This document shows positions 9,411-28,943 of a stretch of 64,000 bases of DNA, one piece after another. This stretch comes from a virus (taxonomy: Duplodnaviria; Caudoviricetes): positions 1 to 64,000 of the IMG/VR virus record IMGVR_UViG_3300021399_000133; one strand, given 5' to 3'. The notes under the pieces were generated by a model. That model was not told the origin of the DNA. It ran no database searches and worked only from the letters and a program-made list of their open reading frames with translations. A program made the translations under genes and the position numbers. Within the stretch, counting starts at the first letter, position 1; every line of letters starts with the position of its first letter.

Positions 9411-10157
9411 ATGAGAGTTATACGACAAAAATATTTTTCTGCCAAAGAAGTTTTTAAAGGCGCTCTATTAGGATTTGGAACAGGAATCTTCTTTGGTAAA
9501 TCTGTATCTCTTGCTGTTGCTGCTGTTAATAAAGCTTTTGGTAAGAGTTATGGAAAAGCATTTGCACTAACTACTCTGGGTTTAGGAATAATAGGAGCAA
9601 TTATTGGGGGAGTCACTGCTTATTCCATTAGTAATATAAAGAATAAGTTAGAGGATTTTATAAATTGGAAAAGAAAAAATTATAAAGCCCTTGGTAGATT
9701 AGTTAAAAACAGCATTCCCTCTAAATCAGAACTAAACAAAATTAAAATGTTAGTAGATGCAGAGGAGAAATTTAGAAGCCTATGTCCTATTATTCATCAT
9801 CAGCCAGACCTAGGTTATGTAATTAGATATCCACAAACGGATGCCGAGTGGATAGACTTTGTTGGTGCTTCTCTATGGGCTACTAATGCAAAAAACCTAG
9901 GAATTCCAGATGTCTCAACTATTCCCGTTGTTAGTATAAGTCTAGGAGTTGACACTAGAAAAAATAAACCAATCTACTACGCTTTATTCGACCCAATTAA
10001 ACAGACTTATTGGATTGATAAAAATAAAAAGGGATCATTAGAGGATTTTTTCTATCATGCTGTCAAAGATTCTGGAGATAATCGAGAACTAAGGAGAGTT
10101 ACTGGTTTTAAAGATTATAATAAAGCTCTTCTTAATTTTATTGAGGAGAATTTATAA
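9411..10157 (+). CDS. motif-bearing Gly-zipper protein, paralog of 11046-11798
   Basis: MRVIRQKYFS; hydrophobic hairpin; shared DF..WK..N.KAL..L..NS.P and LCP.I..EWID.V.A blocks. Confidence 0.75.
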   Translation: MRVIRQKYFSAKEVFKGALLGFGTGIFFGKSVSLAVAAVNKAFGKSYGKAFALTTLGLGIIGAIIGGVTAYSISNIKNKLEDFINWKRKNYKALGRLVKNSIPSKSELNKIKMLVDAEEKFRSLCPIIHHQPDLGYVIRYPQTDAEWIDFVGASLWATNAKNLGIPDVSTIPVVSISLGVDTRKNKPIYYALFDPIKQTYWIDKNKKGSLEDFFYHAVKDSGDNRELRRVTGFKDYNKALLNFIEENL

Positions 10158-10168
10158 AATTAGATATT

Positions 10169-10567
10169 ATGAAAGTAATTAGATATAAGACTTTTTCAGA
10201 TAAAGGAAAAGATAGACCAGCATTAAGTACTGTTAATTCTCATCGTGGTCTTGGTAGATCTCTTGTACTTGGTGGTTTATTTGGTGCTGGTGGTGGCTTA
10301 GCGGGGAAGATGAAAGCTGATGACCTAGACGCTAAAGGTATGACAGATGAAGCAATTGTTCGTAGATCTAGTAAACATGCAGCAAAAGTAGGCGGTGTGA
10401 CTGGAGCTGTTAGAGGAGCTGCGTATGGTGCTTTAGCTAGTGGTCCGGTTGCAATAATTCCAGGTGCTGTTGCTGGTGGTATTCTCTCAGGTGCGGGTGC
10501 TTATCTTGGTGCTAAGAAAAATGCGCAAACTCGTATTAAGAAGAGAAAAGAATTAATGAATAAATAA
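10169..10567 (+). CDS. motif-bearing Gly-zipper protein (SHRG/GAKKN family)
   Basis: MKVIRYKTFSD; SHRGLGRSL..G; GAKKN. Confidence 0.78.
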   Translation: MKVIRYKTFSDKGKDRPALSTVNSHRGLGRSLVLGGLFGAGGGLAGKMKADDLDAKGMTDEAIVRRSSKHAAKVGGVTGAVRGAAYGALASGPVAIIPGAVAGGILSGAGAYLGAKKNAQTRIKKRKELMNK

Positions 10568-10581
10568 ATAGGAGGATTTTT

Positions 10582-11049
10582 ATGGTTATTTATAGATATA
10601 AGACTTTCTCAGATGAAGATAAAAAGATTTCTCTTAAGTCAGTGAAATCTCATCGTGGTCTTGGTAGATCTCTTGCTCTTGGTTATCTCCCTGCCTCTTT
10701 AGCCGCACGTAGTACAAAGAAACTTGCTAATAAGCTTGATGAAGAGGGCGCATCTGAAGCAGAAATTATTGAGAAAGTAGGAAAAGCAGGTGGAAAGCGC
10801 GGTGCTATTGCTAATGCTGCTACTTTTGGTACTCTTGGTGCTGCTAACGGAGGTGCTCTTGGTCTATTAGCTGCTGACGCCCTTAAGAAAAGTACGAAAA
10901 AAGGGGCAATAGCTGGTAGTATTCTTGGTGGTGTAGCTGGATTATCTACTGCAGTGCCTGGCTATATTGCTGGTAAAATGGGTGCTAAGAAAAATGCACA
11001 AGATAGATTGAGAAAGCGTAGAGAGCTTGAAAGAGACTTGAGAAAATGA
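10582..11049 (+). CDS. motif-bearing Gly-zipper protein (SHRG/GAKKN family)
   Basis: MVIYRYKTFSD; shares DNA block ctcatcgtggtcttggtagatctcttg with the previous gene. Confidence 0.78.
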   Translation: MVIYRYKTFSDEDKKISLKSVKSHRGLGRSLALGYLPASLAARSTKKLANKLDEEGASEAEIIEKVGKAGGKRGAIANAATFGTLGAANGGALGLLAADALKKSTKKGAIAGSILGGVAGLSTAVPGYIAGKMGAKKNAQDRLRKRRELERDLRK

Positions 11050-11798
11050 TAGTACAAAGGCAATATTCGCTTAATTCTTTCATTAATATAGTAAAAGGAG
11101 CTAAAGCAGGCGCAATAGTGTCAGTGTCTTTAGGTCTTCTTGTTGGTGCTGTTGTTTCTCTCTTTGCAAAAAGTGGAAATAGACTTAGATCATTTCTTCT
11201 TGGTTTAGGAGTTACTACGTTAGGTGGGGCGATTGTTGGTGCATTGTGTTCAGTAAAGTCTAAGTCTGGTTTGGAAGATAAGATAAAAGACTTTGTTAGA
11301 TGGAAGAATGAGAATGCTAAAGCTCTTGAAACTCTAGCTACCAATAGTCAACCACCTTCATCTGATTTAGGAAAGATTAAGCGATTAATTATAGAGGAGA
11401 AGGATATTAGAAAGCTTTGTCCTGAAATTTATAATAATGATGCGGGCTATTATGATATTTATCTCCCATCTTCTCCGGCTGAATGGATTGATGTAGTTGC
11501 TGCTTATGAATATTCTATTTTTCAGAGTGAGGACTATGTAATTCCAGTAAAGGGAAAAATTCCATGTGTTTCGGTTATCAATGAAGCACTTTTTGAAAAC
11601 GTTGAGTTTATTTTGTTCTATGACCCAATTTTGAAAACCTACAATTTTTACGGTAAACCATGCACTCTTAAGGATTTCTTTTTAAGGGTTATTGATTTAT
11701 GTAAGAAAGAAGGTATTGATGTAGAGTTTTCTGATCCTGAGTCATTTGAAAAATACAATCAAGCTTTTAAAGGTTTGATAAATAAATATCTAAAGTGA
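11046..11798 (+). CDS. motif-bearing Gly-zipper protein, paralog of 9411-10157
   Basis: MIVQRQYS; hydrophobic hairpin and shared C-terminal domain. Confidence 0.75.
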   Translation: MIVQRQYSLNSFINIVKGAKAGAIVSVSLGLLVGAVVSLFAKSGNRLRSFLLGLGVTTLGGAIVGALCSVKSKSGLEDKIKDFVRWKNENAKALETLATNSQPPSSDLGKIKRLIIEEKDIRKLCPEIYNNDAGYYDIYLPSSPAEWIDVVAAYEYSIFQSEDYVIPVKGKIPCVSVINEALFENVEFILFYDPILKTYNFYGKPCTLKDFFLRVIDLCKKEGIDVEFSDPESFEKYNQAFKGLINKYLK

Positions 11799-12698: not shown

Positions 12699-14399
12699 AT
12701 GAAAAAGTCCGATAATTTATTTCAAAAGTTATTCGGATCGTTTGCTATCGGTTCTAGTCGTATTCCTATTCGGAGCAATATTTACAATGGTGGGAATGGA
12801 TACTCTGCAATTGGATCGACGGGGACTTCAAGATTATTTGAAATCGATAGAAGGTCACCTCTCTTAGGAAATTCAAGTGCATCAAATCGATTGTCTGGTT
12901 ACTTAGATAGAATCATTGAGCTTAAGGGTTATCAGCTTCTAGATATTAGTAAACTCGCTACTAACTTCTTTGCTGATTACTTGATAAACTTTCTCTTGGA
13001 CAGTAACAGACAGCAGGTAGTAACGATCTTGAATGCCGAAGGTGAGAATGACGCAACTAAGACAGATAGAATTAATGATATTCTGACTAAAGATATTCGC
13101 CTGTTTGATTTTATTAGGGATCATATTCAGGATTACGTTTTCTTTGGTGAATATTATGCTCTCTTACAGAAGACTAAGGATGAATTAGGTTATGTAAAGT
13201 TTCGGATTGAGGAATTGAATGACCCTGTCTCGGTTATTATCAAGAAATCACGAAACAAAGAGGGCGAGATGGAGGAAAAATTCTTGGCAAAAGGAAATGA
13301 TGGAACTATGTATGAAATTCCTAGAGATGAGGTAATTTACATAGCTTCTAATAATCTTCGCCTGGTTAATGATTTGAATTCAGGTTGGAAAGAACAATAT
13401 GGTCAGCACAAGATTGATCTAGGGAAAGATAAAGAAACTAATCGTGAAAAAGTCATTAAGAAAGAATCCTACACTGCCTCTGAGCCTTTATTCTATCCTT
13501 TGATTTTGAAGATTAAGGAGTTGACAGTCAAAGAGTTACTAGTTTCACTTATATCACTTAGAGACCTTTCATCTGTTCAAATATTTCTTCTTCAATTTGA
13601 TAAGTCTGTTCCTCTTGAGTCTGCCCAGGAGTTATGTGCTAGAGCGACTAAACTTGCCAATAATACGAATGAACTGGCTTCTTTCTTGACCTCTCAGTTT
13701 GATGTTACTTCTTTTATTGAGAATACATTAACTCAGAGTGCGAAGTTTGTGCCTGATTATAATTCGACGATTGGTGGTAAGAATAGTATGTTGCCTCTGG
13801 ATAAGTTGTCTGAGAAGCTCTTGGACATTATGCAGTCTCTTGATAGTAATAAAGCGAATGTTCTTGGTTCCTTGGGTCTTCCGTCAACGCTCCTTGATTC
13901 TACTTCTGGCTCAAAATGGGTAGTACTTCAGCAATCCGAACGAGCAAATTCTAGAGTCGCCGCGTTTATGACAGGTATTAAAGACTCAGTTACTAATCTT
14001 GTTTGCTCTATTTATCGTCAACTATATGGAGAGGAATTAGATCCTGCCTTGATTAGACTTCATATTAGCGAGAAGACAAGTGTAGAATATAATAATCAGA
14101 TCAACCAGTCAGAGTCTATTAATAATCTCTTGCAGGGTGTATCTAATGTATTCCAGAGTGCGATTCAGACACTTGATATTACTTCTCCTTTAATTGAACC
14201 AAAGGCATTCTTAACCTATATTCAAAATTTGGTTAAAGATATAGACCCGAATACAGAGTCTATTATAACGGAGGAGACGGTTGAGAAATTCTTAGCTTTA
14301 CAGAATGCTAAAGTTAATTCTCAGTTTGAACAATTAGGAGTTGATCCTAGTACAATTCAAGCTCCAGAACAACAACAACCAAAAACAAAATTTGATTAA
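12699..14399 (+). CDS. portal protein (T4 gp20-like)
   Basis: 566 aa; YVFFGEYY and KANVLGSLGLPSTLL blocks; lies upstream of protease/scaffold/capsid. Confidence 0.82.
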   Translation: MKKSDNLFQKLFGSFAIGSSRIPIRSNIYNGGNGYSAIGSTGTSRLFEIDRRSPLLGNSSASNRLSGYLDRIIELKGYQLLDISKLATNFFADYLINFLLDSNRQQVVTILNAEGENDATKTDRINDILTKDIRLFDFIRDHIQDYVFFGEYYALLQKTKDELGYVKFRIEELNDPVSVIIKKSRNKEGEMEEKFLAKGNDGTMYEIPRDEVIYIASNNLRLVNDLNSGWKEQYGQHKIDLGKDKETNREKVIKKESYTASEPLFYPLILKIKELTVKELLVSLISLRDLSSVQIFLLQFDKSVPLESAQELCARATKLANNTNELASFLTSQFDVTSFIENTLTQSAKFVPDYNSTIGGKNSMLPLDKLSEKLLDIMQSLDSNKANVLGSLGLPSTLLDSTSGSKWVVLQQSERANSRVAAFMTGIKDSVTNLVCSIYRQLYGEELDPALIRLHISEKTSVEYNNQINQSESINNLLQGVSNVFQSAIQTLDITSPLIEPKAFLTYIQNLVKDIDPNTESIITEETVEKFLALQNAKVNSQFEQLGVDPSTIQAPEQQQPKTKFD

Positions 14400-14755
14400 T
14401 GGCTAAAGAAGAGAAGAAACAGCTAACGCCAGAAGAGAAAGTGGCATTGGCGAAGAAAGGATTGGCAGGTGGAATTGCAACGACTGGCCTTGGTGGTGCA
14501 ATGGTTGGTGGTGGTTATGCTTTGGATTGGATGAAGAAGCACAATATTGATCCAGAAAAGATGGGTAAGTATTATAAAAAGCTTGACAAAAGTGGTAAGA
14601 GCGCTTGGAATAAGAATAGTACTAAGCTTAAAGCCACAGGAGCCTTAGTAACTACCGCTGGTCTTGGTGTAACTGGTTATACTGCCTATCAACACTACAA
14701 AAATAAGAAGAAACTAGAGGAGAAAAAAGATGAGACTAAAGAGGATAAGAAGTAA
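14399..14755 (+). CDS. Gly-rich two-TM small protein with Lys tail
   Basis: GLAGGIATTGLGGAMVGGG; TTAGLGVTGYTAYQHYKNKKK resembles the C-terminus of 2588-3496. Confidence 0.72.
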   Translation: MAKEEKKQLTPEEKVALAKKGLAGGIATTGLGGAMVGGGYALDWMKKHNIDPEKMGKYYKKLDKSGKSAWNKNSTKLKATGALVTTAGLGVTGYTAYQHYKNKKKLEEKKDETKEDKK

Positions 14756-15122
14756 ACTGTTTTCTCAGCCTCAACCAACTCCAATAGATAATAATTCGGG
14801 ACAACAACAGCCACCAACCCCAGGATTTGGTACTTCGGGGAATATTACTTCTAAAGATCTGATGCTTGAGCAGATGAGACAGCAGAGGCAATGGTTACAA
14901 ACTCAAAGGCTTAGACAAAGACTTCAAGCCCAAGAGAAACGCGATCAAATGAAAGCCTCAATGATGAATCAGAAGCGACAAAACGAAGAAGACAAGCAGG
15001 ATCTTAAAAATAGTATTAATATTAAGAAGGTAGAAAACCAATCTTCTGAGGCTGAAGCAAAGAATGTTGGTCTATATAAAACAAGATCTAGAGCTTTACA
15101 ACCTGTCCCGATGAAACATTAA
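14730..15122 (+). CDS. Gln-rich coiled-coil putative head-cargo protein
   Basis: MRLKRIRSKLFSQ motif. Confidence 0.7.
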   Translation: MRLKRIRSKLFSQPQPTPIDNNSGQQQPPTPGFGTSGNITSKDLMLEQMRQQRQWLQTQRLRQRLQAQEKRDQMKASMMNQKRQNEEDKQDLKNSINIKKVENQSSEAEAKNVGLYKTRSRALQPVPMKH

Positions 15123-15132
15123 ATTAAAGATT

Positions 15133-15246
15133 ATGGTTGAGCTCAAAGAAAAAACATTTACCCAAGATGTTGAAGATGCTGAAAAAGAGCGAAAACAACG
15201 AGAGAAGGGCAATGTTTTCAATCCACTAAAATCTGGTTGGAGATGA
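15133..15246 (+). CDS. 37-aa motif-bearing peptide missed by ORF track
   Basis: MVELKEKTFTQDVEDAEKERKQREKGNVFNPLKSGWR*; gattATG context; its TGA overlaps the next ATG. Confidence 0.65.
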   Translation: MVELKEKTFTQDVEDAEKERKQREKGNVFNPLKSGWR

Positions 15247-15491
15247 TAATCAAGAGAAGTCGATTATATTCTGGCTATGGGGAAGTAAACCTAAATGGAA
15301 TTGGGTACCAGTCAGCTCAATTAACTGATAACTACCTATTAAATCCAGCAGAGAAAGTAGTCGACTCTGTATCTGATTCACCAGCTGGAAATATAAAACC
15401 AGTTAAAAAGAAACTTAACTTGGTTAAACGGATTGTCTCTCCTATGAGAACTATTATCAAAAATCATAGGAAAGATAAGAAGATTAAATAA
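15243..15491 (+). CDS. small motif-bearing protein (start revised to ATG 15243)
   Basis: MIIKRSRLYSG; ATGA coupling to upstream peptide. Confidence 0.7.
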   Translation: MIIKRSRLYSGYGEVNLNGIGYQSAQLTDNYLLNPAEKVVDSVSDSPAGNIKPVKKKLNLVKRIVSPMRTIIKNHRKDKKIK

Positions 15492-15515
15492 TTTTTTTAA
15501 ATTAATTGTATTATT

Positions 15516-15974
15516 ATGTACATTCGTCGTAAGGTATTTTCTGTAGTAATGGATGAGGCTACAGGTGAACAGAAGCTCTTCTCTACTAATGAGATTATTT
15601 CTGAAGAGGCATATCTCCAGAAGGTTTATGCTGAGGCAGAAGAGGAAGAGCAAGAAAAAGCTTCTAAGAAGGCTAAGGCAAAGAAGATTGCTAAGGAAGC
15701 TGCTATCGTTGGCGGTACTGGTGCTGGTTTAGCTGCTGGTGGTGTTGGTGCTTATTATGGTACTAAAGCACTTGCTGGTATGAAGGATGGCGGCAAGGTT
15801 AAGAATGCTATTAAGAGCGGTGCAGGTAAGGTTGTTGAATTTGCAAGTAAGCACCCGAAGACTACTGCTGGTATTGCTGTAGCTGCTCCTGTTGTTGCTG
15901 CTGGTACTGTTGCAGGTGTTCGTGCTTATAAGCGTAAGAAGGCAGCTAAGAAGGCCGCTGAGTCTGCTGAATAA
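15516..15974 (+). CDS. motif-bearing Gly/Ala two-TM protein
   Basis: MYIRRKVFS, internal QKLFS and QKVYA; KHPKTTAGIAVAAPVVAAG..AYKRKK. Confidence 0.78.
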   Translation: MYIRRKVFSVVMDEATGEQKLFSTNEIISEEAYLQKVYAEAEEEEQEKASKKAKAKKIAKEAAIVGGTGAGLAAGGVGAYYGTKALAGMKDGGKVKNAIKSGAGKVVEFASKHPKTTAGIAVAAPVVAAGTVAGVRAYKRKKAAKKAAESAE

Positions 15975-15997
15975 TTCAACCCTCAACTAACATAAAG

Positions 15998-16432
15998 ATG
16001 ATTCTTAGACTTAAACGAAAGTACTTTTCAGGAAGGAATGTTTCTGAGTATGACGTTACTGATGATTATAAGACCATGACAGATGCTGAGTTATTGGCTG
16101 AGGAGAAGAAATCCAATGCTGATACCTATAAAAAGGCAGCTAGAATTGGTGGTTATGGTGCTGGAGCAGGAGCTTTAGCAGGATCAATCATTGGTGGTGT
16201 GGCTAAGAAATCTTTGAAAGGTGCTGGAATTGGGGCTGCGGTTGGTGCTTTGGCTGGTGGAGTAACTGGAACTGGTGCTGGTCTTGCTATTACTCATAAA
16301 GATAGAGAGCGTAATAGATTTATTAATGATCGCCTTAGTTATGCACAGAAGCTAGCTGAACGTAGAGAGCGCCGAGATTGGGTAGCGAATCATCGAAGAA
16401 GAGTTGGCTATTCTTTCGGCAACCCTAATTAA
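15998..16432 (+). CDS. motif-bearing Gly-zipper protein
   Basis: MILRLKRKYFSG; GxxxG hairpin. Confidence 0.78.
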   Translation: MILRLKRKYFSGRNVSEYDVTDDYKTMTDAELLAEEKKSNADTYKKAARIGGYGAGAGALAGSIIGGVAKKSLKGAGIGAAVGALAGGVTGTGAGLAITHKDRERNRFINDRLSYAQKLAERRERRDWVANHRRRVGYSFGNPN

Positions 16433-16440
16433 TAATATTT

Positions 16441-16495
16441 TCCCACAGTTAAGTTGAAATATGACTTATTCTGTTCGATCAGGCTGTGGGAACTA
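16441..16495 (+). ncRNA. 55-nt tRNA-mimic element, copy B
   Basis: tcccacagt/gctgtggga; taagtt-GAAATAT-gactta; ctg-TTCGAT-cag; a-CTA. Confidence 0.78.
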
Positions 16496-16607
16496 ATTCA
16501 GATGTTTTGTTATGCACATGATGTTAGAGAGGCCTTGGAGTTAATTCCTTGGTTTCTCTTCCGGCTGTGTGATAATGAAACTATAAACCATTAAAATTCA
16601 AATAATT

Positions 16608-17285
16608 ATGCCGTCTCTAAAATCAGTTAACCCTTTTGATGATCCCAGTTTTAAAAAAGAGATCATGGCGTCTGAAGGAGTGGTTAGTGTGGTTGATGAG
16701 GAGGACGAACTTAAATCTATTATATCATCAGCCCCAAAAATACCTACTTCCGCCAAAAACATGATTCTTGATGCAACAGCTCTAGCCAAAAATAATAAAG
16801 AGCAAAAGGCACAAGAGATGACTAGGGCTTTGTCACAGGTATTTACAGATTATAACAAGGAATATGGATTAGATTTGGAGGTAGACTTTTCAAATCTTTC
16901 CAAGACTTTAGTTAATTGTGCTGATCCTAACACTAGAAGAACATTAGAGCTTTATACATCAGAATTATTTAAATCTATAAAGCCTCTTCTTCTAATACAT
17001 TTGATTAATAAACTTTCCATTGCAGTTGACTATGTACTTCAGCCAGAGATAATGATGTCAGAGCAATTTTCCGCTGCCGATGTTTTCTTAATGGTTGAAA
17101 AGTTAATGCAATTTATTCAGAACCTTGATGATATTCTCAAACAGGCCTCAATACCAGACTCTGATAAATTACTTCAGAAATTGGCCGAGGAACATCATGA
17201 TCAAGGGTTAGATAGTCCAGAATCAAAAGAGGCAATCGACAGCTTTATGAAACTTTTTAAAAATGATAATGGACTAAGCAAATAA
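16608..17285 (+). CDS. acidic helical hypothetical protein (possibly a terminase small subunit)
   Basis: 225-aa helical ORF in the head module lacking the shared N-terminal motif; function not established. Confidence 0.6.
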   Translation: MPSLKSVNPFDDPSFKKEIMASEGVVSVVDEEDELKSIISSAPKIPTSAKNMILDATALAKNNKEQKAQEMTRALSQVFTDYNKEYGLDLEVDFSNLSKTLVNCADPNTRRTLELYTSELFKSIKPLLLIHLINKLSIAVDYVLQPEIMMSEQFSAADVFLMVEKLMQFIQNLDDILKQASIPDSDKLLQKLAEEHHDQGLDSPESKEAIDSFMKLFKNDNGLSK

Positions 17286-17376
17286 TATTTTCTACACTAG
17301 GTCTTAGGGGAGGGAGGTAGAATAATAAATGATAATCAGACCTTTAAACCTAACCCAATATTCAAAGTTTAAAGTT

Positions 17377-17856
17377 ATGATTATTTTAAAACAACACAAC
17401 TTCTCTGATGACGAGAAAAAGGTTTCATTAAAGCATGTAGGCAGTCATAGAGGAATGCGACGTGCTCTTGGTCTTGGTGATCCTTTTGGTGTAGGTGTTT
17501 CCGCAGGAGTAAAAAAAGCCAATAAACTTGACGAAGAAGGTAAAAGTGATGAAGAAATTTTAAGAGGTGCTAAAAAAGCAGCTGCTAAGAAGGGTGCACT
17601 AGTTAATGGTGCTCTTACTGGTGGTACTCTTGGTACTCTTGGTGGTTTAGCTGGTGCTGCTGCTAGTTATTACCTTACAAAAGGCAAAATAAAACCTGCT
17701 CATGTACTGAAAGGTGCTGGAATTGGGGCTGCAGTTGGTGCTGGAGTAGGTGCAGGCGCTGGTGCTACTGGTGGCTATTTTGGTGCTAAGAAGAATACTG
17801 AAGATCGTTTAGCTAAGCGTAAGGCACTTCAGGAGGAAATTAATAAAAAGAAATAA
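17377..17856 (+). CDS. motif-bearing Gly-zipper protein (SHRG/GAKKN family; start revised to 17377)
   Basis: MIILKQHNFSDDE; SHRG..R.LG; GAKKN. Confidence 0.78.
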   Translation: MIILKQHNFSDDEKKVSLKHVGSHRGMRRALGLGDPFGVGVSAGVKKANKLDEEGKSDEEILRGAKKAAAKKGALVNGALTGGTLGTLGGLAGAAASYYLTKGKIKPAHVLKGAGIGAAVGAGVGAGAGATGGYFGAKKNTEDRLAKRKALQEEINKKK

Positions 17857-17898
17857 TTGACTCGAGTTTTCTTTTGTCATACTATAAAATATTCCTTA

Positions 17899-17953
17899 TC
17901 CCGGGACGAGTCTGAAATAAGGTCTCTACTATTCGATTAGATTCCGGGAGCTA
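17899..17953 (+). ncRNA. 55-nt tRNA-mimic element, copy C
   Basis: tcccgggac/attccggga; gagtct-GAAATAA-ggtctc; cta-TTCGAT-tag (compensatory versus ctg/cag); g-CTA. Confidence 0.75.
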
Positions 17954-18043
17954 AATCAAGTCATTTTTCTAGATAACAGTGGAGAGAAATTTGGCTTTTA
18001 CTTTATATTAAACTCTTTAAACTCCATTGATTTCATTTAAACT

Positions 18044-18226
18044 ATGAAGAAAGCAGTTATTTCATTGTTTTGCCTTCTTACTCTTTCTGTTGTTCTTGGC
18101 TCTTGCAAAGGTAGTTGTAAGGGCGAGGTCTCCAATGACAGTGATAGTGTAGTATTGGTAGACAGTGATACAATTATTGAAGTCGATAGTGTTGTAGTAG
18201 ATTCAGTTGTTTCTGACTCTATTTAA
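18044..18226 (+). CDS. small lipoprotein (Bacteroidota-type)
   Basis: signal peptide MKKAVISLFCLLTLSVVLGS-C followed by acidic DS-repeat tail (VDSVVVDSVVSDSI). Confidence 0.75.
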   Translation: MKKAVISLFCLLTLSVVLGSCKGSCKGEVSNDSDSVVLVDSDTIIEVDSVVVDSVVSDSI

Positions 18227-18348
18227 CTCTTTCGGGCTGAACTAGGGATCAAAAGAGGTGTGCTGAATTTATGGCATACTCCTTTCCCTAGACCTTTATA
18301 GTTTAGTTAAGTTTGTCCTCTATTTTTTATTTGAAATCATATTCTTCT

Positions 18349-18396
18349 TCCCTATCCGACTTTAAGTCTACCCTTTGATGTGGAGATAGGGAACAA
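18349..18396 (+). ncRNA. truncated tRNA-mimic element, copy E
   Basis: tccctatcc/agataggga; shortened middle arm gact-tta-agtc; ccc-TTTGAT-gtgg; a-CAA. Confidence 0.5.
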
Positions 18397-18441
18397 AGCA
18401 TAACAAAACATCGTCATTAACCATTTAATTTTTAGATAATT

Positions 18442-18522
18442 ATGACGGAGTTTATTACATTCTTTTCGGCTATCTTAGTGGCTATTAGTGTTATTTATGC
18501 TAATTATTTCACAATAGGTAGT
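18442..18522 (+). CDS. 26-aa hydrophobic peptide missed by ORF track
   Basis: MTEFITFFSAILVAISVIYANYFHNR*; aattATG context typical of this genome. Confidence 0.45.
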
Positions 18523-18605
18523 CGTTAAAAACATCAAGACATTTTAATTTAGCCGAGATTGAGTTATATTAGTCTTGGTCGATAAATATTAATCACGATA
18601 ATAAA

Positions 18606-19835
18606 ATGAAGGTAAAGTGTCGAATTTTATCGTTCGAAACTCCTGCCAGTGATAAGAGTCGTGTTCCATATGAGGTAATTTCTTCTTACATTAACAGTCA
18701 GGCATGTAAGGAGGATATTGCTAATAGAATAATGTTAGGAACTCTTACTCATCGTTCTCGTGCTATTCAGGCTGTTTTCCCAGATAATCCCACATTATCT
18801 AAGACAGTTGGTAAGGATGATAGCATGTTGATTGTAGATGATAAAGCTCCGACACCCACACATTACGTCAGTGATCTTTGGTTGGAGAAGGACGGTTGGT
18901 TGTGGGGAACATTAACGATTCTTGATACTGAAGGCTTAGACGATAGAGCAGTTCAGAACATCAAGCGTCTTCGTGGTTTATTGAAGCAAGGCATTAAGCT
19001 TACAATTTCTTGTGTTCTTCTTGGTTATTGGAAGTCGACGAATGGAGGTGATGAACTTTCCAAGCTTCAGTCGTTGAAATCTTGTGACTTTACTATGAAT
19101 CCAAGTTGGGGTAAGAAGGCTGCTGTTGTAGATATAATTAATGAAGAGGGTGATTATGAGTCAGAGGGTGAAAGGTCTTACTCTGATCTTGAAGACGGAA
19201 AAATGTATGTAAAGACTTTTTCAGCAACTGATAGTGTCTGTGCAGGTTATCCAAAGTCTTCAAAGATTAATAATGAATTTACGACCCTCAAGGCTAAATG
19301 TTTTTCGACTTGTGCTGAAGTAACTGACATTGTAGAAGAGGAGTCTGTTCCGGTTCAAAAGGAATACTCCATTGCCAGTGTTAAGGAGAGATTGCGTGAG
19401 GCTAAGTATTCTCCTCGTGTATTTTTCAGGAAGACCATTTTATCATATAAGCAAGTAGTTAAATCTCTTGGTGATAGGATGGATGAAGAGACTAAGGGAA
19501 TATTGAAGGGAATGTTTACTAATGATATTCTTTTTGTTATTCAGCGTATTTCTCCTCAGGTTATTCAGGGTAAGTCATTAATGGCATTGCTTGGCGCTGG
19601 TGCATTGGGTAAAAATGTTCGTCAAGCAGCACAAAAGTTACAGATCCCATATAGGTTTGCTTTTAATGAGTTGACTAAACAGGGCTTTGTTAGTAAGAAT
19701 CGTTATCAAAAGCTTCAGACTGCATATATGGAGTTTATTAATTCCTTGTGTGATGAAGTTTTTAATAATCCTCATGCTCCTGTTGTTGAAGAAGGGGATG
19801 AGAGTGAGCAGAATAATGAAGAAACAGAAGGATAA
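18606..19835 (+). CDS. prohead maturation protease (T4 gp21-like) with C-terminal extension
   Basis: GTLTH (His), LTISCVLLG (Ser), SCDFTMNPS (Asp); immediately upstream of core and capsid genes. Confidence 0.85.
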   Translation: MKVKCRILSFETPASDKSRVPYEVISSYINSQACKEDIANRIMLGTLTHRSRAIQAVFPDNPTLSKTVGKDDSMLIVDDKAPTPTHYVSDLWLEKDGWLWGTLTILDTEGLDDRAVQNIKRLRGLLKQGIKLTISCVLLGYWKSTNGGDELSKLQSLKSCDFTMNPSWGKKAAVVDIINEEGDYESEGERSYSDLEDGKMYVKTFSATDSVCAGYPKSSKINNEFTTLKAKCFSTCAEVTDIVEEESVPVQKEYSIASVKERLREAKYSPRVFFRKTILSYKQVVKSLGDRMDEETKGILKGMFTNDILFVIQRISPQVIQGKSLMALLGAGALGKNVRQAAQKLQIPYRFAFNELTKQGFVSKNRYQKLQTAYMEFINSLCDEVFNNPHAPVVEEGDESEQNNEETEG

Positions 19836-19837
19836 TT

Positions 19838-20698
19838 ATGGCTAGAGTTAAGTTATTTTCAAGTTCCGCGCCAACAGTTATCCGTCGTAGAAAATTGTTT
19901 TGCGCAGAAGAAGAGAATCCTGGAACGACGGTATTAGAGTGCGCGGATTGTGGATATAAATTTGAAACTACTGCTCATACTACGTCTCAGATTTGTCCTA
20001 GGTGTGGTGGATTGAGATTTAATGTAGTTCGTACGTTTTTCTCCAATAATTCATCTACTCCTGAGCCAGTTGAAGAGGCGGCAGAAGGTAAGCAAAGAGT
20101 AGGTTTATATTCTACGTTGCCTGGGGAAGAGGAAGCATTTCAGAAGACTTTTTCCGAGACAACAGACGAGTTTGAATTGAAGTTAAAGGAATTCTCTGGT
20201 AAAACATTTAAAGAGGAAGATATAGAAAAGACGTTTGGTTGCACCTCTGACGAACTTTTGGATAAGGGTTTTGCTGAGGTTAATGATAATGGTGATATTC
20301 ATGTTTTGGATACTGCTTTTATGCAATCTCGTTTATTTTCAAAGATCTTGGTAAAAGTCACTAAGGTTTTTGAGCTTGATCCAGAGGTAGTTGGGGCATA
20401 TGGAGCTAAGAAAGAAGCTATCCTTGACTCTTTGGAAGATAAGATTTCTCCTCGTGGTGTTATTGTTTTAAAGAAGGCTCATGGTTTTGATACCGTTAAG
20501 GCAGAAGACGATTGGGCCAAAACGAGCGGAATAATTAATGATCTTCCCCTAGAATTTGGTGGTTCTGAGAGGGACTATGAGGGTTTTAAGAAGATTATAG
20601 ATACTAGATACCCAGATGCTCCAGAAGGAATTATGGACTTATTGAAAAATAGGGGTGTAATTTCCATTTCTGGTAATACGGTCAGGGTGTTGAAATAA
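19838..20698 (+). CDS. prohead core protein with zinc ribbon
   Basis: CADC..CPRCGG; motifs VKLFS, RKLFC, TFFS, QKTFS, KEFS, SRLFS. Confidence 0.7.
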   Translation: MARVKLFSSSAPTVIRRRKLFCAEEENPGTTVLECADCGYKFETTAHTTSQICPRCGGLRFNVVRTFFSNNSSTPEPVEEAAEGKQRVGLYSTLPGEEEAFQKTFSETTDEFELKLKEFSGKTFKEEDIEKTFGCTSDELLDKGFAEVNDNGDIHVLDTAFMQSRLFSKILVKVTKVFELDPEVVGAYGAKKEAILDSLEDKISPRGVIVLKKAHGFDTVKAEDDWAKTSGIINDLPLEFGGSERDYEGFKKIIDTRYPDAPEGIMDLLKNRGVISISGNTVRVLK

Positions 20699-20725
20699 AA
20701 TAATTAATCTCTAATTTTGAAAAAG

Positions 20726-22936
20726 ATGGTTACTACTTTTATGAGCCGTATGTTTAGTGCCTCTGCTGATGAGGAGCAGGAAGTTCTCGAGCAGACAGCA
20801 AAGGACATTGAGGCAGCTAAAGAGTCCGGTAAGGTTGTTGATAATGACAATCAGCTGGAATATGTAAACCTTGGTGAGGGTGTTGTTCAGGTAACAGACC
20901 TTGGCCATGGTGGTGAAATTACGCTTGTATCTCAGGCAGAAGATGGCAACTATGATCTCGAACCTGGTAATCCCGCAGTTCAGTCTGAGCAGATTGAGGG
21001 CTACTTGCATCCGGAAGTGGGTGACACTGTAGAAGTCGGTGCTCAAGAAGGTGCTCCAGATGAAAAGGTTGAGGATCATATGAATGGTGCTGGCGTAATT
21101 GCACCAAATAAAGCTAATGGCGGTTTGAATCCTGAGGCCGGCCAGGAAGCTACAGTAGAAGAAAATGCTGAAACAGGAGAAGGGCGCCAGATTGTTGAAG
21201 GTGGCGAAAGCTCATGTCCTGAGGAGGATGACGAAGAAAGAGAATTTAGCGTATCAACAGACAATAGTGTAGTTCTGCGCATTTTCTCTGATCAGGCTTA
21301 TTGTGAGAGAATTTTCTCTGATTGCATCGAGTGTGACGAATCTGCTAAGGTTGGTAACTTGGTTATCGAGAAGGTAGAGGACGAAGATGCTGTTATTGTC
21401 AAGGATGTTGAGACAGGTGATGCCGCTAAGGTTACTCTGGACGACGAAAATCTAGACGTACAGGAACTCGATCAGAAGGAACTCTCTAAGTATTACAGTG
21501 AAGACGAAGACGAGGATGAGGATGAGGAGGACGAGGAATATGCTGGTGCTCCCGCTGCTCCAGGTGCAGAGGAAGAGTTTGATGCTCTCCATGTAGTTGG
21601 TGTTGATCCTATTAATCATATTATTGTAGACGCTCCAGTTTACAGTGAGGAAGATGCACAGGATCTCGTTGGTCGTCTTGAGGAAGATGGTGTTTCGGGT
21701 GTTTCTGTATTTGAATGCCCAAGTGAAGCACGTGATTATGCTATCGATCTTTTGAACAATCTTGGTGCTGAGTCTGAAGATGACGTTGAGGAGCCCGAGC
21801 AGGTAGAGTATAGTGATCATACTATCTTTGTTACTCGTTTCTACAGCGACCACACAGACTACATGATGAAGATCTTCTCTGAGGCAGCTGATGGTGTATC
21901 TGCTTCTCAGGATGTTATCGAGGATGCTATCGAGAATGGTGACGAAATTGAAGTAGACGGTGAAATCATTACTCCTGTTGATGCTACTACTGCAGTGGTT
22001 GAGGATAAGGAGAATGGTGAGTTTACTAAGGTTACTCTCGATGGTGAAGAAATGAATCTTGACCCAATCACAGAATCTGAGGCTGAGGAACTTACTGAAG
22101 ACTTGGCTGTTTCTGAGGATGGTGAAGATGAGGATGAACCCGAAACAGAAGAGGAAGTAGAAGATGATGCAGAGGCTGAGGATGAAGAGGAAGATGCTGA
22201 TGACGCAGATGAGAATAATGAGGACGATGAAGAGGAAAAGAAATTCTCTGAGGAAGATCTGACCGACTATATGATTCGTATGTTCTCTGAAGATTCTGAG
22301 TCTAGCCAAAATGATATTGAAGATGCTATTGAAAGTGGTGAGCAGATTGAGAATAATACAGAGGTAATTACTCCTGTTGATGCTACTACTGCTGTTATCG
22401 AGGACAAGGAGAGTGGTGAGTTTACTAAGGCTACTATTCTTGATGAAGATAACATGGATATCTCTCCAATTTCAGAAGAAGAGGCAGATGAACTTACCGA
22501 AGACCTGGCTGTTGAGGACAGTGAAGGTGAGGATGAGGATGAGGATGAAGAGGAGAAGAAGTACTCCGAGGATCCCGTTCTTGATGATTTCTTCACTAAG
22601 GCTTTCAATGAACTGAATGCAGCAGAACAGGAAGTAATTCAGGCAGTTCGTGATCCTCAGACAGGCGAACTTGTACCTCTCAACCCCGAACCAGAGGGTG
22701 AGGAAGTAGTTCCAAGTCTTGAGGCTATTGAAGATAAAGCTCTCCAGGCAGTTCAGTCTATCCAGGAAGCAGCAGCAGAGGCTAGTGCTCAAATTATTGA
22801 AGCAAAGCAAACTCCAGCTGTTGAGGAGCAGGAAGATCTCCAGGAGGCACAGTTCTCTGAGGGTGAAGAAAGAACCTTCAGTGATAGCGAGGACACACTC
22901 GTATCTTGGTTCAAAGGCAACTCGCTTTTGAAATAA
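20726..22936 (+). CDS. acidic prohead scaffold/core protein with internal repeats
   Basis: extremely Glu/Asp-rich, directly upstream of the capsid gene; repeated ~65-aa domain; about 14 x-x-[FY]S-[EDAV]-like sites. Confidence 0.82.
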   Translation: MVTTFMSRMFSASADEEQEVLEQTAKDIEAAKESGKVVDNDNQLEYVNLGEGVVQVTDLGHGGEITLVSQAEDGNYDLEPGNPAVQSEQIEGYLHPEVGDTVEVGAQEGAPDEKVEDHMNGAGVIAPNKANGGLNPEAGQEATVEENAETGEGRQIVEGGESSCPEEDDEEREFSVSTDNSVVLRIFSDQAYCERIFSDCIECDESAKVGNLVIEKVEDEDAVIVKDVETGDAAKVTLDDENLDVQELDQKELSKYYSEDEDEDEDEEDEEYAGAPAAPGAEEEFDALHVVGVDPINHIIVDAPVYSEEDAQDLVGRLEEDGVSGVSVFECPSEARDYAIDLLNNLGAESEDDVEEPEQVEYSDHTIFVTRFYSDHTDYMMKIFSEAADGVSASQDVIEDAIENGDEIEVDGEIITPVDATTAVVEDKENGEFTKVTLDGEEMNLDPITESEAEELTEDLAVSEDGEDEDEPETEEEVEDDAEAEDEEEDADDADENNEDDEEEKKFSEEDLTDYMIRMFSEDSESSQNDIEDAIESGEQIENNTEVITPVDATTAVIEDKESGEFTKATILDEDNMDISPISEEEADELTEDLAVEDSEGEDEDEDEEEKKYSEDPVLDDFFTKAFNELNAAEQEVIQAVRDPQTGELVPLNPEPEGEEVVPSLEAIEDKALQAVQSIQEAAAEASAQIIEAKQTPAVEEQEDLQEAQFSEGEERTFSDSEDTLVSWFKGNSLLK

Positions 22937-22965
22937 AATAACTTATTAAATTGATAATTCATAAT

Positions 22966-24414
22966 ATGAATAACTCTTATTTGCAGGCCATGCAGACTCC
23001 CGCTATGATGGAGGCTCTGGTAAACAGTTCTGTATCTCAGGATGATGCTAATCTTCGTCTTCGTGAGTATGCTAAGATGTTCTCTCGTAATGAAGAGGAT
23101 ATGGAAATCTTTGGTATTGGCAATCGTCCTAACCTCCTTCAGAAGACTTTCTCTGGCTATGCTGAAACTCCTCTGTTGAGCACACAGTATTTCAATGCAT
23201 CTGTTGCTTCTTACGTAAGCTCATTTGCAGGTTATATGTCTATCGAGCGTGACTTTGATCAGCCTAACGGTCTGTTCTATTGGTTCGACGTTCTTGGCGT
23301 AACTGACAACCGTTCTGTTATTCCTAACCTGGGTCCCGATAACTATCAGGATATCCAGACTATGGGCGGCTTCAACCTTGACCTGACTCCTGCTGCTCGT
23401 GCAGACTGGAATGCTCTGGTTGGTCGTAAGATTATTCCTGGTACAGTTCGTGTTAAGATCCAGACTGCTACTGAGAAGTTTGAGCTGATCGATAATGGTC
23501 AGGGTGCATTCATGGCTGTTGCTGGTAAGATCACTGATGGTACTATCAACTACCTGAACGGTCGTATCGACTTCACTCTTACTACTGCTCTGAGTGGTGA
23601 TCCTGCAACTGAATCTATCACTATCGTAGGTAAGGAAGATGTTACTGGTACTCCTTGCAATACTGTAGGTGCTAGCAATGCTCATGCTAATGACAAGCGT
23701 TTTATCGCTAAGCAGCAGCAACTTGGTCTCTCGACTGTTCCTGATATGCTCGTTGCTGAATTCAACATTGCTGCTCTCGGTGCAATGAAGAAGGCTACTG
23801 GTGCTGACATGGCTACCTTCCTCTTCACTAAGCTTCGTGAGCTCTATACTAAGGCTATCAACTACAAGCTCGTTTCTACTCTTGAAGAGTATTATACTGG
23901 TGACACTTTGGTTGACCTTGATCTGTCTCAGGCTGCCGTTACTGGTCAGTTCTATGATTATCGTTCTAGAGTAGACCTCTTTGACGCTTATCTGGTGAAC
24001 GTAGAAAGCTACCTCGCTCAGAAGGCTGTTAAGGGTGTTACTACTACCGCTTATGTAGCTGGTGCTAATGCAGCTAATCAGTTCCAGAAGGGTGGTATCA
24101 ATGGTAAGTGGAAGAAGAACACTAAGATGACTTACATCAACGACCTCCTTGGTTGGTATGATGGCGTTCCAGTTCTCCGTTCTACTGACATCGCTGAGAA
24201 TGCAGGTGAAGGCACATTCTATGCTATCCATAAGACTGCTGATGGTCAGATGGCTCCTCTGGCACGTGGTATCTACATGCCTCTGACTGATACTCCTACT
24301 GTTGGTAACTACAATAACCCAACTCAGATGGCAGCTGGTATCTACTACCAGGAAGGTACTAAGTATCTTGCTCCTGAGCTGGCCCAGAAGGTTACCTTCA
24401 AGATGGGTATCTAA
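22966..24414 (+). CDS. major capsid protein (T4 gp23-like); start revised to ATG 22966
   Basis: size and position; EFNIAALGAMKKATGADM..LRELYTKAINYKLV blocks; strong codon bias; followed by terminator. Confidence 0.9.
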   Translation: MNNSYLQAMQTPAMMEALVNSSVSQDDANLRLREYAKMFSRNEEDMEIFGIGNRPNLLQKTFSGYAETPLLSTQYFNASVASYVSSFAGYMSIERDFDQPNGLFYWFDVLGVTDNRSVIPNLGPDNYQDIQTMGGFNLDLTPAARADWNALVGRKIIPGTVRVKIQTATEKFELIDNGQGAFMAVAGKITDGTINYLNGRIDFTLTTALSGDPATESITIVGKEDVTGTPCNTVGASNAHANDKRFIAKQQQLGLSTVPDMLVAEFNIAALGAMKKATGADMATFLFTKLRELYTKAINYKLVSTLEEYYTGDTLVDLDLSQAAVTGQFYDYRSRVDLFDAYLVNVESYLAQKAVKGVTTTAYVAGANAANQFQKGGINGKWKKNTKMTYINDLLGWYDGVPVLRSTDIAENAGEGTFYAIHKTADGQMAPLARGIYMPLTDTPTVGNYNNPTQMAAGIYYQEGTKYLAPELAQKVTFKMGI

Positions 24415-24527: not shown

Positions 24528-24752
24528 ATGGCTACTTACAGATTAAAAAGAAAAATGTTTGATGTAAGTGATGGAGTTAAAAAGGGTGCAATGGTCGGAG
24601 GACTGGTTGGAGGCTTAGCCGGAATGGTTGGCGGTCCAGTGGCGTCATTAGCCGGTAGCGCAGCAGGAGCCGTTGCTGGAACAGTTCCAGGCGCTGTTAT
24701 TGGTGGTATCTCTGGTGTAGGTGATTCCATTAAGGAGGACTTTAAAAAATAA
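24528..24752 (+). CDS. 74-aa motif-bearing Gly-zipper peptide
   Basis: MATYRLKRKMFD; GGLVGGLAGMVGGPVASLAGSAAGAVAG. Confidence 0.75.
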   Translation: MATYRLKRKMFDVSDGVKKGAMVGGLVGGLAGMVGGPVASLAGSAAGAVAGTVPGAVIGGISGVGDSIKEDFKK

Positions 24753-24758
24753 ATTTAT

Positions 24759-25283
24759 ATGGCAAGTACTTTTACTTTAAAAAGAAAATTATATAGTGCT
24801 CCCTCTAGAATTAAGCTGTTCTCTGATGAAGATAATCAAAAAAGTGGGCTTAGTACTGGAGCTAAAGTTGGTTTGGGAGCCCTTGCCACTCTTGGTACTG
24901 CTGCAGCTGCGTTCGGTGGAGCTAAATCAGGTCTTTTTGGTGCTAAAGCAATGAGATCAACTAATATGGGCGTACAACGGTTAGGTGCTTCACTGAAGAA
25001 AAATGGCTTAGGTAAAATTGGTGAATCTGTTTATCAAAGTGGCAAACAGGGTGTAGCCGATGCAAACTATGTACTTCGTGCAAAAAATATTGCGAAGGCA
25101 CAACAGCAAAATCTAGCTAACCGAGCTAAAGCAGCAGGTTTTGATAGTTATAAAGCATATCAAAAATCTGGTAAGGCAGGTATTGATTCACAGGCTGCAA
25201 TTGCTCAGGCACAAAAGATAGGAGAACGAAATCAACTTTGGAAAGAAGCTGCTCAACAATGGCAAGCTAATCCTATAATTTAA
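24759..25283 (+). CDS. motif-bearing protein with Gly/Ala TM segment
   Basis: MASTFTLKRKLYS..IKLFSDE (double motif). Confidence 0.75.
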   Translation: MASTFTLKRKLYSAPSRIKLFSDEDNQKSGLSTGAKVGLGALATLGTAAAAFGGAKSGLFGAKAMRSTNMGVQRLGASLKKNGLGKIGESVYQSGKQGVADANYVLRAKNIAKAQQQNLANRAKAAGFDSYKAYQKSGKAGIDSQAAIAQAQKIGERNQLWKEAAQQWQANPII

Positions 25284-27339: not shown

Positions 27340-27557
27340 TGAAGATAAAAAGATTCTCTGCCACTAAAATTCTTAACACAAATATGGGTTTAGGATTTAG
27401 ACGTGGGCGGAAGTATGATACTGACTTAGATCGACTGGGTAGAATGGATACTTCGCAGAGAGAACTTTCTAGAGTCAATCAGTTAGGTAGTGAAATGAGG
27501 AAACTCAGATCAGAATTAAATAATGAGAGGTTAGGAATATGGCAACATACAGACTAA
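27336..27557 (+). CDS. small basic motif-bearing protein
   Basis: MMKIKRFSA. Confidence 0.65.
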   Translation: MMKIKRFSATKILNTNMGLGFRRGRKYDTDLDRLGRMDTSQRELSRVNQLGSEMRKLRSELNNERLGIWQHTD

Positions 27558-27871: not shown

Positions 27872-27875
27872 TATT

Positions 27876-28940: not shown

Positions 28941-28943
28941 GCT

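Follow-up and report, generated by a model that had tools for sequence, protein, structure and literature searches.

The head module of the phage contig analysed here carries a short recurrent motif, [KR]-x-[FY]-S, which is probably the recognition site of the prohead protease encoded in the same module (open reading frame (ORF) 18606-19835), with a basic residue at P3, an aromatic residue at P1 and Ser, less often Gly, Asn, Thr or Ala, at P1'. The window, that is, the whole stretch of DNA that was analysed, comprises the first 64 kb (64,000 nucleotides (nt)) of an 88,987-bp contig (IMG/VR record IMGVR_UViG_3300021399_000133). It has a GC content of about 37% and almost all of its genes lie on the plus strand, as do all the features located below. 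A first-pass annotation of the window had proposed that the protease recognises a basic-x-aromatic-Ser site, destroys the scaffold, cleaves itself and trims the capsid protein, and the computational evidence reported here supports this overall interpretation.

The head module has the layout of T4: its portal resembles gp20, its serine protease gp21 and its capsid protein gp23, and it also encodes an acidic scaffold. The gene order is portal (12699), protease (18606), ORF 19838, scaffold (20717) and capsid (22966), to be compared with the T4 order 20-67-68-21-22-23, and it is the same in three sister phages (L003, L004 and L005) whose proteases are 43-46% identical to that of the window. None of the five proteins was usefully recognised by Pfam or PHROGs, and the same was true of nine other large ORFs.

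We propose that the protease would enter the prohead core via its C-terminal helical domain and become free through self-cleavage at as many as four places in the linker. It would cut the scaffold and the product of ORF 19838 into pieces of 8 to ~160 residues, remove 62 (or 63) residues from the capsid protein and clip a leader of ~9 residues from the portal and from ~25 internal head proteins. By analogy with the capsid-targeting sequence of T4, the leader may also bring those proteins into the prohead.

Enrichment of the Motif in Head Proteins

The enrichment of the motif is real and far above chance. In shuffle tests that kept the composition of each protein (20,000 shuffles), strict [KR]-x-[FY]-S sites numbered 11 in the scaffold, where 0.11 were expected, and 4 in ORF 19838-20698, where 0.22 were expected, and no shuffle reached either count. 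The protease contains 4 sites (0.33 expected, P = 0.0002) and the capsid protein 2 (0.18 expected, P = 0.01), both inside its first 63 residues. No strict site was found in the portal, which has only the variant K-L-F-G. The codons at the sites differ, Ser being encoded by AGT, AGC, TCT and TCC (both codon families) and Arg by CGT, CGC and AGA; what is selected is therefore the peptide, not a repeat in the DNA.

The acidic scaffold-like protein occupies the position of T4 gp22 (20717..22936) and is 739 aa long when counted from TTG 20717, as for all scaffold residue numbers given here, ATG 20726 being the more likely start. Asp and Glu make up 32% of its residues, Lys and Arg 5%. All the scaffold sites listed in the first-pass annotation are present in the ORF translation, together with one that had been missed, PVYSE (309), which joins VEYSD (365), KAFNE (630) and AQFSE (713) as the four variant [FY]-[SN] sites beside the 11 strict ones. 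Ser follows 14 of the 34 Phe/Tyr residues, and among three-letter words R.FS (the dot standing for any residue) shows the strongest over-representation (P 6e-14). Words of the Glu type show no enrichment here, with 11 occurrences of [LI].E against 14.7 expected and 29 of [SAG].E against 30.8. The scaffolds of L003, L004 and L005 have 11, 14 and 18 sites, respectively, with several positions conserved, and when the four phages were pooled, Lys or Arg stood at -2 in 88 of 112 internal [FY]-S dipeptides and Asp or Glu came next in 59%.

Part of the scaffold is repeated: residues ~365-470 and 500-605 (window 21800-22600) form two tandem copies of a domain of ~105 aa (…DxIEDAIExG…ITPVDATTAVxEDKExGEFTK…EELTEDLAV), each preceded by a pair of motif sites. 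The scaffold of L005 has three or four copies, so that the copy number differs among phages. Because of these tandem domains a few of the scaffold sites are copies, which leaves the conclusion unchanged.

Between protease and scaffold, ORF 19838-20698 encodes a motif-rich core protein of 286 aa with a zinc ribbon, indicated by weak zinc-ribbon Pfam matches. Its leader ends at VKLFS and is followed by RKLFC, QKTFS, LKEFS, GKTFK, EKTFG and SRLFS, four of its sites being strict; the syntenic ORFs of the three sister phages have 5-7 sites apiece.

A Prohead Protease of the T4 gp21 Type

The assignment of ORF 18606-19835 as a prohead protease of the T4 gp21 type was borne out by its fold and by an invariant set of His, Ser and Asp residues. 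The ORF has more than 200 homologues (identity 42-55%), and an AlphaFold (AF2) model built from 52 of them, with an overall predicted local distance difference test (pLDDT) score of 75, shows three parts: an N-terminal catalytic domain (residues 1-166, 18606..19103), a linker mostly of low pLDDT (residues 167-255, 19104..19370) and a confident helical bundle (residues 256-387, helices with pLDDT 85-94) that is followed by an acidic tail (19371..19835). The catalytic domain matched T4 gp21 (5jbl) in Foldseek (E 5e-4, probability 1.0) and in VIA (Z 10.5, root-mean-square deviation (rmsd) 2.6 Å, 131 residues aligned, model residues 1-166). Structure matches in BFVD included 'Peptidase U9, T4 prohead protease' (E 1e-7) and also protease-scaffold fusions, and a weaker match was obtained with the herpesvirus protease pUL26N (VIA, Z 7.0).

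The candidate catalytic triad consists of H49 (nt 18750-18752), S135 (nt 19008-19010) and D161 (nt 19086-19088), which are invariant in the 52 homologues. In profile alignments their counterparts are the His, Ser and Asp of two other proteases, that of a phage from another clade (L007; hhalign 95%) and that of Escherichia phage vB_EcoM_IME392 (78%), and the three residues lie opposite H85, S140 and the Asp of GVDAV in T4 gp21 in an alignment of low probability. Their spacing is 86 and 26 residues, and that of the SPN3US gp245 triad is 76 and 25 residues (PMC5694885). H86, which would give a T4-like spacing, was rejected as the catalytic His: it is not conserved in L007, where, as in IME392 and T4, the His aligns with H49. 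The protease gave no match in Pfam or PHROG at E 0.1 or 0.01, a PDB profile search was empty, and tblastn against 50,697 cultured-phage records found no match. The protease is thus a structural and functional relative of Peptidase_S77 and not a member by profile.

The linker carries four candidate self-cleavage sites, the cluster that had been noticed just after the catalytic domain: RSYS 190-193 (nt 19173-19184), KTFS 203-206 (nt 19212-19223), KCFS 231-234 (nt 19296-19307) and KEYS 252-255 (nt 19359-19370). Among more than 50 homologues of 43-55% identity, S193, K203, S206, K231 and S234 are invariant and F205, F233 and K252 are conserved in at least 90%, while the x position and the flanks vary. 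This conservation of all four sites agrees with the self-cleavage predicted earlier. The C-terminal bundle had only generic four-helix-bundle matches (Z <=7); it is probably a scaffold- or core-anchoring domain that cutting of the linker would free, a role proposed because phiKZ gp175 and SPN3US gp245 autocleave C-terminally (PMC5694885).

Two further observations concern the protease. Its first nine residues (18606-18632) read M-x-x-K-C-[KR]-[IV]-L-S, a near-motif with Leu for Phe, and in the L005 protease (L005:10001-11233) residues 6-9 are a complete K-L-F-S. T4 gp21 becomes active on losing its nine N-terminal residues (PMC9958956), and the near-motif could, by analogy, be an activation site; residues 2-9 form a beta-strand of the fold in the model, which counts against this. 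In the linker, segments 201-205 (VKTFS) and 218-235 (TLKAKCFSTCA) were predicted as beta-strands with pLDDT up to 76, and the structural alignment with the herpesvirus protease reaches residue 242. On the strength of the model, a linker site may thus dock in cis onto the catalytic domain.

A Predicted Propeptide on the Capsid Protein

The capsid protein (482 aa as called, residues counted from ATG 22966) is of the T4 gp23 type, with an N-terminal propeptide that would be removed at the motif. Its model (pLDDT 81.5) matched T4 gp23 (7vrt, VIA; Z 18.9, rmsd 2.8 Å, 249 residues) and T4 gp24 (1yue, VIA; Z 17.0), and distant capsid homologues gave weak matches to PF07068 Gp23. The fold shared with gp23 and gp24 covers model residues 59-482, with its onset at ~59-69, and residues 1-58 lie outside it. 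The mature major capsid protein, with a gp23-type HK97 fold, is placed at 23155..24414, and the predicted propeptide (residues 1-62 or 1-63) at 22966..23154. The propeptide holds both of the capsid sites reported in the first-pass annotation, KMFS at 37-40 (nt 23074-23085) and the junction KTFS at 60-63 (nt 23143-23154). In the model, helices span residues 4-49, and the junction, L-L-Q-K-T-F-S-G, falls within a disordered segment (50-67).

Conservation along the protein follows the same division. In 120 close homologues the mean column conservation was 0.79 for residues 1-33 and 0.62 for residues 43-57, the most variable parts of the protein, as compared with 0.97 for both motifs and 0.96 for residues 64-110; the protein is nearly invariant from residue 58 onward, and the junction site is kept in 120/120. 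A variable N-terminus followed by an invariant motif and body is the pattern expected for a propeptide with a processing site at the border of the mature protein. The earlier prediction that about 63 residues are trimmed therefore holds as to the place, a disordered hinge before the gp23-like body, whereas S63 is a likelier start of the mature protein than the G64 it had named.

Leaders on Head-Module Proteins

The first-pass annotation had identified the motif in the scaffold, protease and capsid, and these sites were confirmed, but it understated the extent of the motif, which also closes an N-terminal leader on ~25 other ORFs between 412 and 35975. The leader is ~9-12 residues long and reads M-[IV]-x-x-R-x-K-x-[FY]-[S/T/N/G]. 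It was found on ORFs starting at 412, 1851, 3778, 9411, 10169, 10582, 11046, 14730, 15237, 15516, 15998, 17329 (from an internal Met), 24528, 24759, 26740, 27336, 27539, 27876, 28944, 34361 and 35595, and also on the portal, ORF 19838 and the scaffold. A loose form of the motif occurs within the first 22 residues of 27 of the 43 ORFs before 36 kb, where ~4 were expected, and in 4 of the 27 ORFs beyond 36 kb (tail and other genes). When the leader was removed, BLAST sorted the 25 proteins into 21 mutually unrelated families. Paralogy thus does not account for the leader, which is a shared module. L003, L004 and L005 possess these leaders too.

The portal-like protein (12699..14399, 566 aa) was recognised through Portal_T4 cluster leads from a protein atlas (feature score 0.97, structure TM 0.60); it had no Pfam match, and a PDB sequence-profile search was also empty. 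The QKLFG noted earlier at its beginning is present at residues 9-13. It contains a leader-type site, K10-L-F-G13 (nt 12726-12737), and K-[LM]-F-G recurs at residues 10-14 in the three sister phages.

Internal proteins of T4 carry a capsid-targeting sequence of ~10 residues that gp21 removes (PMC9958956, PMC9026906), and fusion-protein packaging experiments on this sequence have been performed with T4 IPIII (PMC9026906). The window leaders correspond to this type of signal in being N-terminal peptides of about ten residues that are borne by unrelated proteins, end at a predicted protease site and are confined to the head module. By this analogy, the leader may deliver its proteins into the prohead. 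Many of the leader-bearing proteins encoded at 9411-11798, 14399-14755, 24528-25283 and 27539-30566 have Gly/Ala-rich hydrophobic stretches that resemble glycine zippers, which suggests that the packaged cargo includes membrane-active proteins.

Covariation of the Motif between Clades

The strongest support for reading the motif as a cleavage site comes from sequence covariation between clades. A full-library search with the capsid protein gave 132 representatives, down to ~21% identity. Among the 80 that were full length, 65 have [FY]-[S/A/T] no more than 12 residues before the start of the conserved body, against ~20% estimated by chance; 33 of these 65 have Lys or Arg at -2 and 22 have Asn at -1. 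Gene neighbourhoods were fetched for several of the representatives, several others being on contigs of 1.4-2.2 kb without neighbour genes.

Five phages (L007, L011, L013, L014 and L015) form a clade in which Asn precedes the aromatic residue. The capsid junction is x-N-F-S in four of the five and A-S-F-S in L014. In the L007 protease homologue the catalytic domain is followed by four N-F-S sites, [ILV]-x-N-[FY]-[SA] recurs along the scaffolds of the clade, and the leaders of some small ORFs end in N-F-S, N-[FY]-[SA] being the top enriched word in scaffolds and protease linker alike. The position -2 was occupied by Lys or Arg at 107 of 145 sites in the window family as compared with 11 of 63 in the Asn clade, and the position -1 by Asn at 4 of 145 and 30 of 63, respectively. 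A third form of the motif is found in the nearest and only cultured relative, Escherichia phage vB_EcoM_IME392 (MH719082), whose capsid protein is 27% identical to that of the window. Its capsid N-terminus contains VNES twice (RVNES, YVNES), and its protease-scaffold fusion contains V-x-E-S 7 times; AEVNES, KVEES, KVDES, QVDES and KIDES are present in the fusion.

These differences also emerged from an unbiased count, in each scaffold, of every three-letter word with no gap or a single gap. The top word was R.FS or K.FS in four members of the window family (P 1e-11 to 1e-14), NFS in L007 and L014 (~1e-8) and V.ES in IME392 (2e-8), and in T4 gp22, used as a positive control, it was L.ES, with [LI].E occurring 16 times against 5.7 expected. 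The top scaffold word recurs at the capsid propeptide junction in four of the five Asn-clade phages and in both other clades. A word that differs from clade to clade and is nevertheless common to capsid junction, scaffold and protease linker fits a specificity encoded by the phage and is hard to square with a host enzyme. Recognition of a basic-x-aromatic-Ser site, as first proposed, is thus supported by conservation and covariation in its aromatic core. In contrast, the basic residue is clade-specific, the conserved core being [FY]-[S/A], and Ser is replaceable, since the residue after the aromatic one is also Gly, Asn, Thr, Ala or Asp in leaders, in the portal and in distant clades.

Searches for additional members were less productive. 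Two distant capsid representatives had no match among cultured phages, and no further loci were found in viral contigs for the Asn-clade alignment or for P0247. The L007 protease homologue retrieved only itself and one fragment, and in L008 the scaffold did not align with the protease profile and the protease was not located.

Alternative Readings of the Motif

Several points weigh against cleavage at the motif by the window protease. The protease is not placed in Pfam, and hhalign against T4 gp21 alone gave 2.8% probability; its membership in S77 therefore depends on fold and motif spacing. The Fisher P of ~1e-14 for the difference between clades at positions -2 and -1 overstates independence, the clades being related sequences, and the Asn clade consists of five short contigs. 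The capsid site KMFS 37-40 lies inside a confident helix of the model and may thus be inaccessible. Complete cutting would leave scaffold pieces of 93-164 aa, bigger than the small peptides of T4; the earlier statement that the scaffold is destroyed was too strong, and it may be dismantled into domains instead. Finally, cleavage at the motif is a computational prediction for an uncultured group, and a motif that was bound and left uncut would yield identical sequence statistics.

This last point leads to the first alternative, that the motif is a docking or targeting peptide only, which binds a groove on the capsid interior, the scaffold or the C-terminal bundle of the protease, and thereby recruits and crosslinks core proteins without being cut there. 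A co-evolving binding motif would show the same conservation and covariation as well as the same counts, the leaders hold an additional conserved M-I-x-x-R that is absent from the internal sites, as for a targeting signal, and the C-terminal domain of the protease resembles peptide-binding four-helix bundles, if only generically (Z <=7). We nevertheless consider pure docking unlikely. The motif is placed where known gp21-type proteases cut, namely at the capsid junction, in the protease's own linker, in scaffold repeats and at leader ends, and its equivalent in IME392, V-x-E-S, is the known cleavage rule of T4 (PMC9026906). Moreover, the capsid propeptide must be cut off at some site, and the motif is the only recurrent one available.

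If the motif is cleaved, the scissile bond is more likely F/Y|S, judging from sequence register, and the mature capsid protein would start at S63. This bond is favoured because V-N-E-S of IME392 and [IVL]-N-F-S of L007 are in the same register and differ solely in E versus F, because the P3-x-P1 spacing of [KR]-x-[FY] is that of the T4 rule L/I-x-E (PMC9026906), and because the residue after the aromatic one is small (Ser, Gly, Asn, Thr or Ala), like P1' of T4 and SPN3US sites. The same protease and motif with a cut after the small residue ([FY]-S|x), giving a capsid protein that starts at G64, is possible and, in our estimate, quite improbable. In its favour, herpesvirus proteases (pUL26N, Z 7.0), in which P1 is small, as in the Ala|Ser of assemblin, have a fold in common with the window enzyme, and in an ungapped count from a conserved N-arm motif the distance to the Glu of IME392 is shorter by one residue than that to the Phe of L007, so that Glu may align with Ser. 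However, this count is unreliable by ±1 residue owing to indels between clades, and it is set against the register and the spacing just described.

The proteases themselves offer a lead as to what sets the P1 preference. At the second position after the catalytic Ser (Ser+2), T4 has Arg (S-S-R) and IME392 has Lys (S-T-K-A-K), and the window family has Val (S-A-V-I-V) and L007 has Ser (S-M-S-I-Y). A basic residue at Ser+2 may pair with Glu at P1, a suggestion drawn from four lineages only.

It is very improbable that the sites are cut by a host protease, as Prp does for Staphylococcus phage 80alpha. Leaders of ~9 residues in which Phe precedes the cut and a small residue follows do resemble the 80alpha/L27 system (PMC5744158). 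Instead of the same host-matched leader in all phages, however, the motif varies by clade (K.FS, NFS, V.ES) and covaries with the phage protease, and each change is common to all substrates, including the linker of that protease. The scaffolds also have 11-18 internal sites, as opposed to one N-terminal site per protein in 80alpha. Prp and the L27 extension occur in Firmicutes and a few other phyla.

Scarcely credible is the idea that the Ser is a modification site, for example of a basophilic kinase, or that the pattern results from composition or internal duplication: basic-x-x-Ser is similar to a kinase consensus and the scaffold has internal repeats, but replacement of the Ser by Gly, Asn, Ala, Thr or Asp excludes a strict phospho-acceptor, composition-preserving shuffles never reached the counts observed in the scaffold and ORF 19838, and the sites occur in 21 unrelated families.

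Taken together, these considerations leave recognition of the motif by the window protease as the preferred reading, and it describes a T4-type head maturation whose predicted specificity had not been described before, P1 being aromatic, P1' Ser and, in the window clade, P3 basic. No published description of a basic-x-[FY]-S maturation motif was found in a literature search. Should this reading be correct, the natural series of relatives would show how a maturation protease and dozens of substrates shift their specificity together, with the Ser+2 residue as a candidate for a role in the S1 pocket. The motif would also predict which proteins are packaged, and where their mature termini lie, in jumbo phages of the gut and rumen that form a large, abundant and so far uncultured family, could guide virion proteomics and the reading of cryo-EM maps, and is a candidate short tag for capsid loading.

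A broader scenario is offered tentatively, as one that we find plausible, if somewhat less likely than not. P1 may have switched within a single gp23/gp21 lineage from Glu (V-x-E|S) to Phe/Tyr ([ILV]-N-[FY]|S), a basic P3 being added thereafter ([KR]-x-[FY]|S), with all the substrates rewritten each time, from the capsid junction and the scaffold to the self-cleavage sites and the leaders of more than 25 cargo proteins. The nine-residue leader M-I-x-x-R-x-K-x-[FY]|S might then be a portable load-and-release tag for unusually many packaged proteins, many of them membrane-active, in widespread gut jumbo phages.

Genome Context

The window proteins recur identically on a 330,285-bp contig, and homologues were found on gut and rumen metagenome contigs of up to 408 kb; the window is therefore part of an uncultured jumbo phage. 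The Jug gut jumbo phages have a GC content of 27-30%, compared with 37% in the window phage, and the paper describing them does not mention cleavage motifs (PMC12880540).

Two observations lie outside the head proteins. The last ~7 kb of the contig (81500-88987 of G000, L002) are without long ORFs on both strands, unlike the remainder; another genetic code, a non-coding region or an assembly-end problem could account for this. Among the head genes of L005, upstream of the protease, an ORF of 546 aa (L005:7419-9059) matches the Cas12f1-like TNB domain (TnpB/IS-type element).

Comparison with Known Systems

The characterised gp21-type proteases that we found described (T4, phiKZ, 201phi2-1 and SPN3US) cut after Glu (PMC9026906, PMC9958956, PMC5694885, PMC10052503). 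T4 gp21, which follows the rule L/I-x-E (PMC9026906), degrades core proteins, clips short N-terminal peptides off internal proteins and takes 65 residues from gp23 (PMC9958956, PMC9026906), and the background given in the first-pass annotation was correct on these points (PMC9026906, PMC9958956, PMC5694885). The window phage resembles T4 (MEROPS S77, Pfam Peptidase_S77/U9) in the order of portal, protease, scaffold and capsid genes, in the protease fold and the spacing of His, Ser and Asp, in a gp23-type capsid protein with an N-terminal propeptide of ~60-65 residues, in a short motif of three to four residues repeated in the scaffold and in the ~10-residue leaders of internal proteins, which terminate in the motif. 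It differs in the motif itself, [KR]-x-[FY]-S instead of L/I-x-E, in the 240-residue extension of its protease (linker and helical bundle), in having ~25 leader proteins as opposed to a handful, and in a protease that has no sequence-profile similarity to Pfam S77.

The giant phages provide a second parallel. phiKZ gp175 and the proteases of 201phi2-1 and SPN3US (gp245) are, like the window protease, diverged jumbo-phage homologues of gp21; they act on many head proteins and cut propeptides at multiple redundant sites (PMC5694885, PMC10052503), and processing of many head proteins is predicted for the window phage as well. phiKZ gp175 and SPN3US gp245 remove their own C-terminal part, and the architecture of catalytic domain, cleavable linker and anchoring domain predicted here matches theirs (PMC5694885). 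In contrast, the giant-phage proteases cut after Glu at S/A/G-x-E, and their propeptides are mostly 111-254 residues long, as compared with mostly ~9 in the window phage. IME392 is related through its capsid and through a protease domain that aligns with the window family (hhalign 78%), but its recurrent word, V-x-E-S, is of the classical Glu type as predicted from sequence.

Staphylococcus phage 80alpha resembles the window phage in the substrates. In 80alpha the host L27 protease Prp cuts an F|A bond in both capsid and scaffold, removing 13-14 residues from their N-termini, so that a short leader, a Phe followed by a small residue and the presence of the same leader on non-homologous phage proteins are common to both (PMC5744158). 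80alpha differs in that a cysteine protease of the host does the cutting, ribosomal protein L27 dictates the motif, and each protein has a single site, with none in the interior of the scaffold.

Lastly, herpesvirus assemblin (pseudorabies pUL26N) is similar to the window protease in its related fold (Z 7.0), in Ser at P1' and in self-cleavage from a C-terminal scaffold-like part, which is predicted for the window enzyme. Assemblin has a Ser-His-His triad and the motif (V/L)-x-Ala|Ser. The window protease, with its candidate His, Ser and Asp, differs from it in this respect and belongs to a phage, whereas assemblin comes from a eukaryotic virus.

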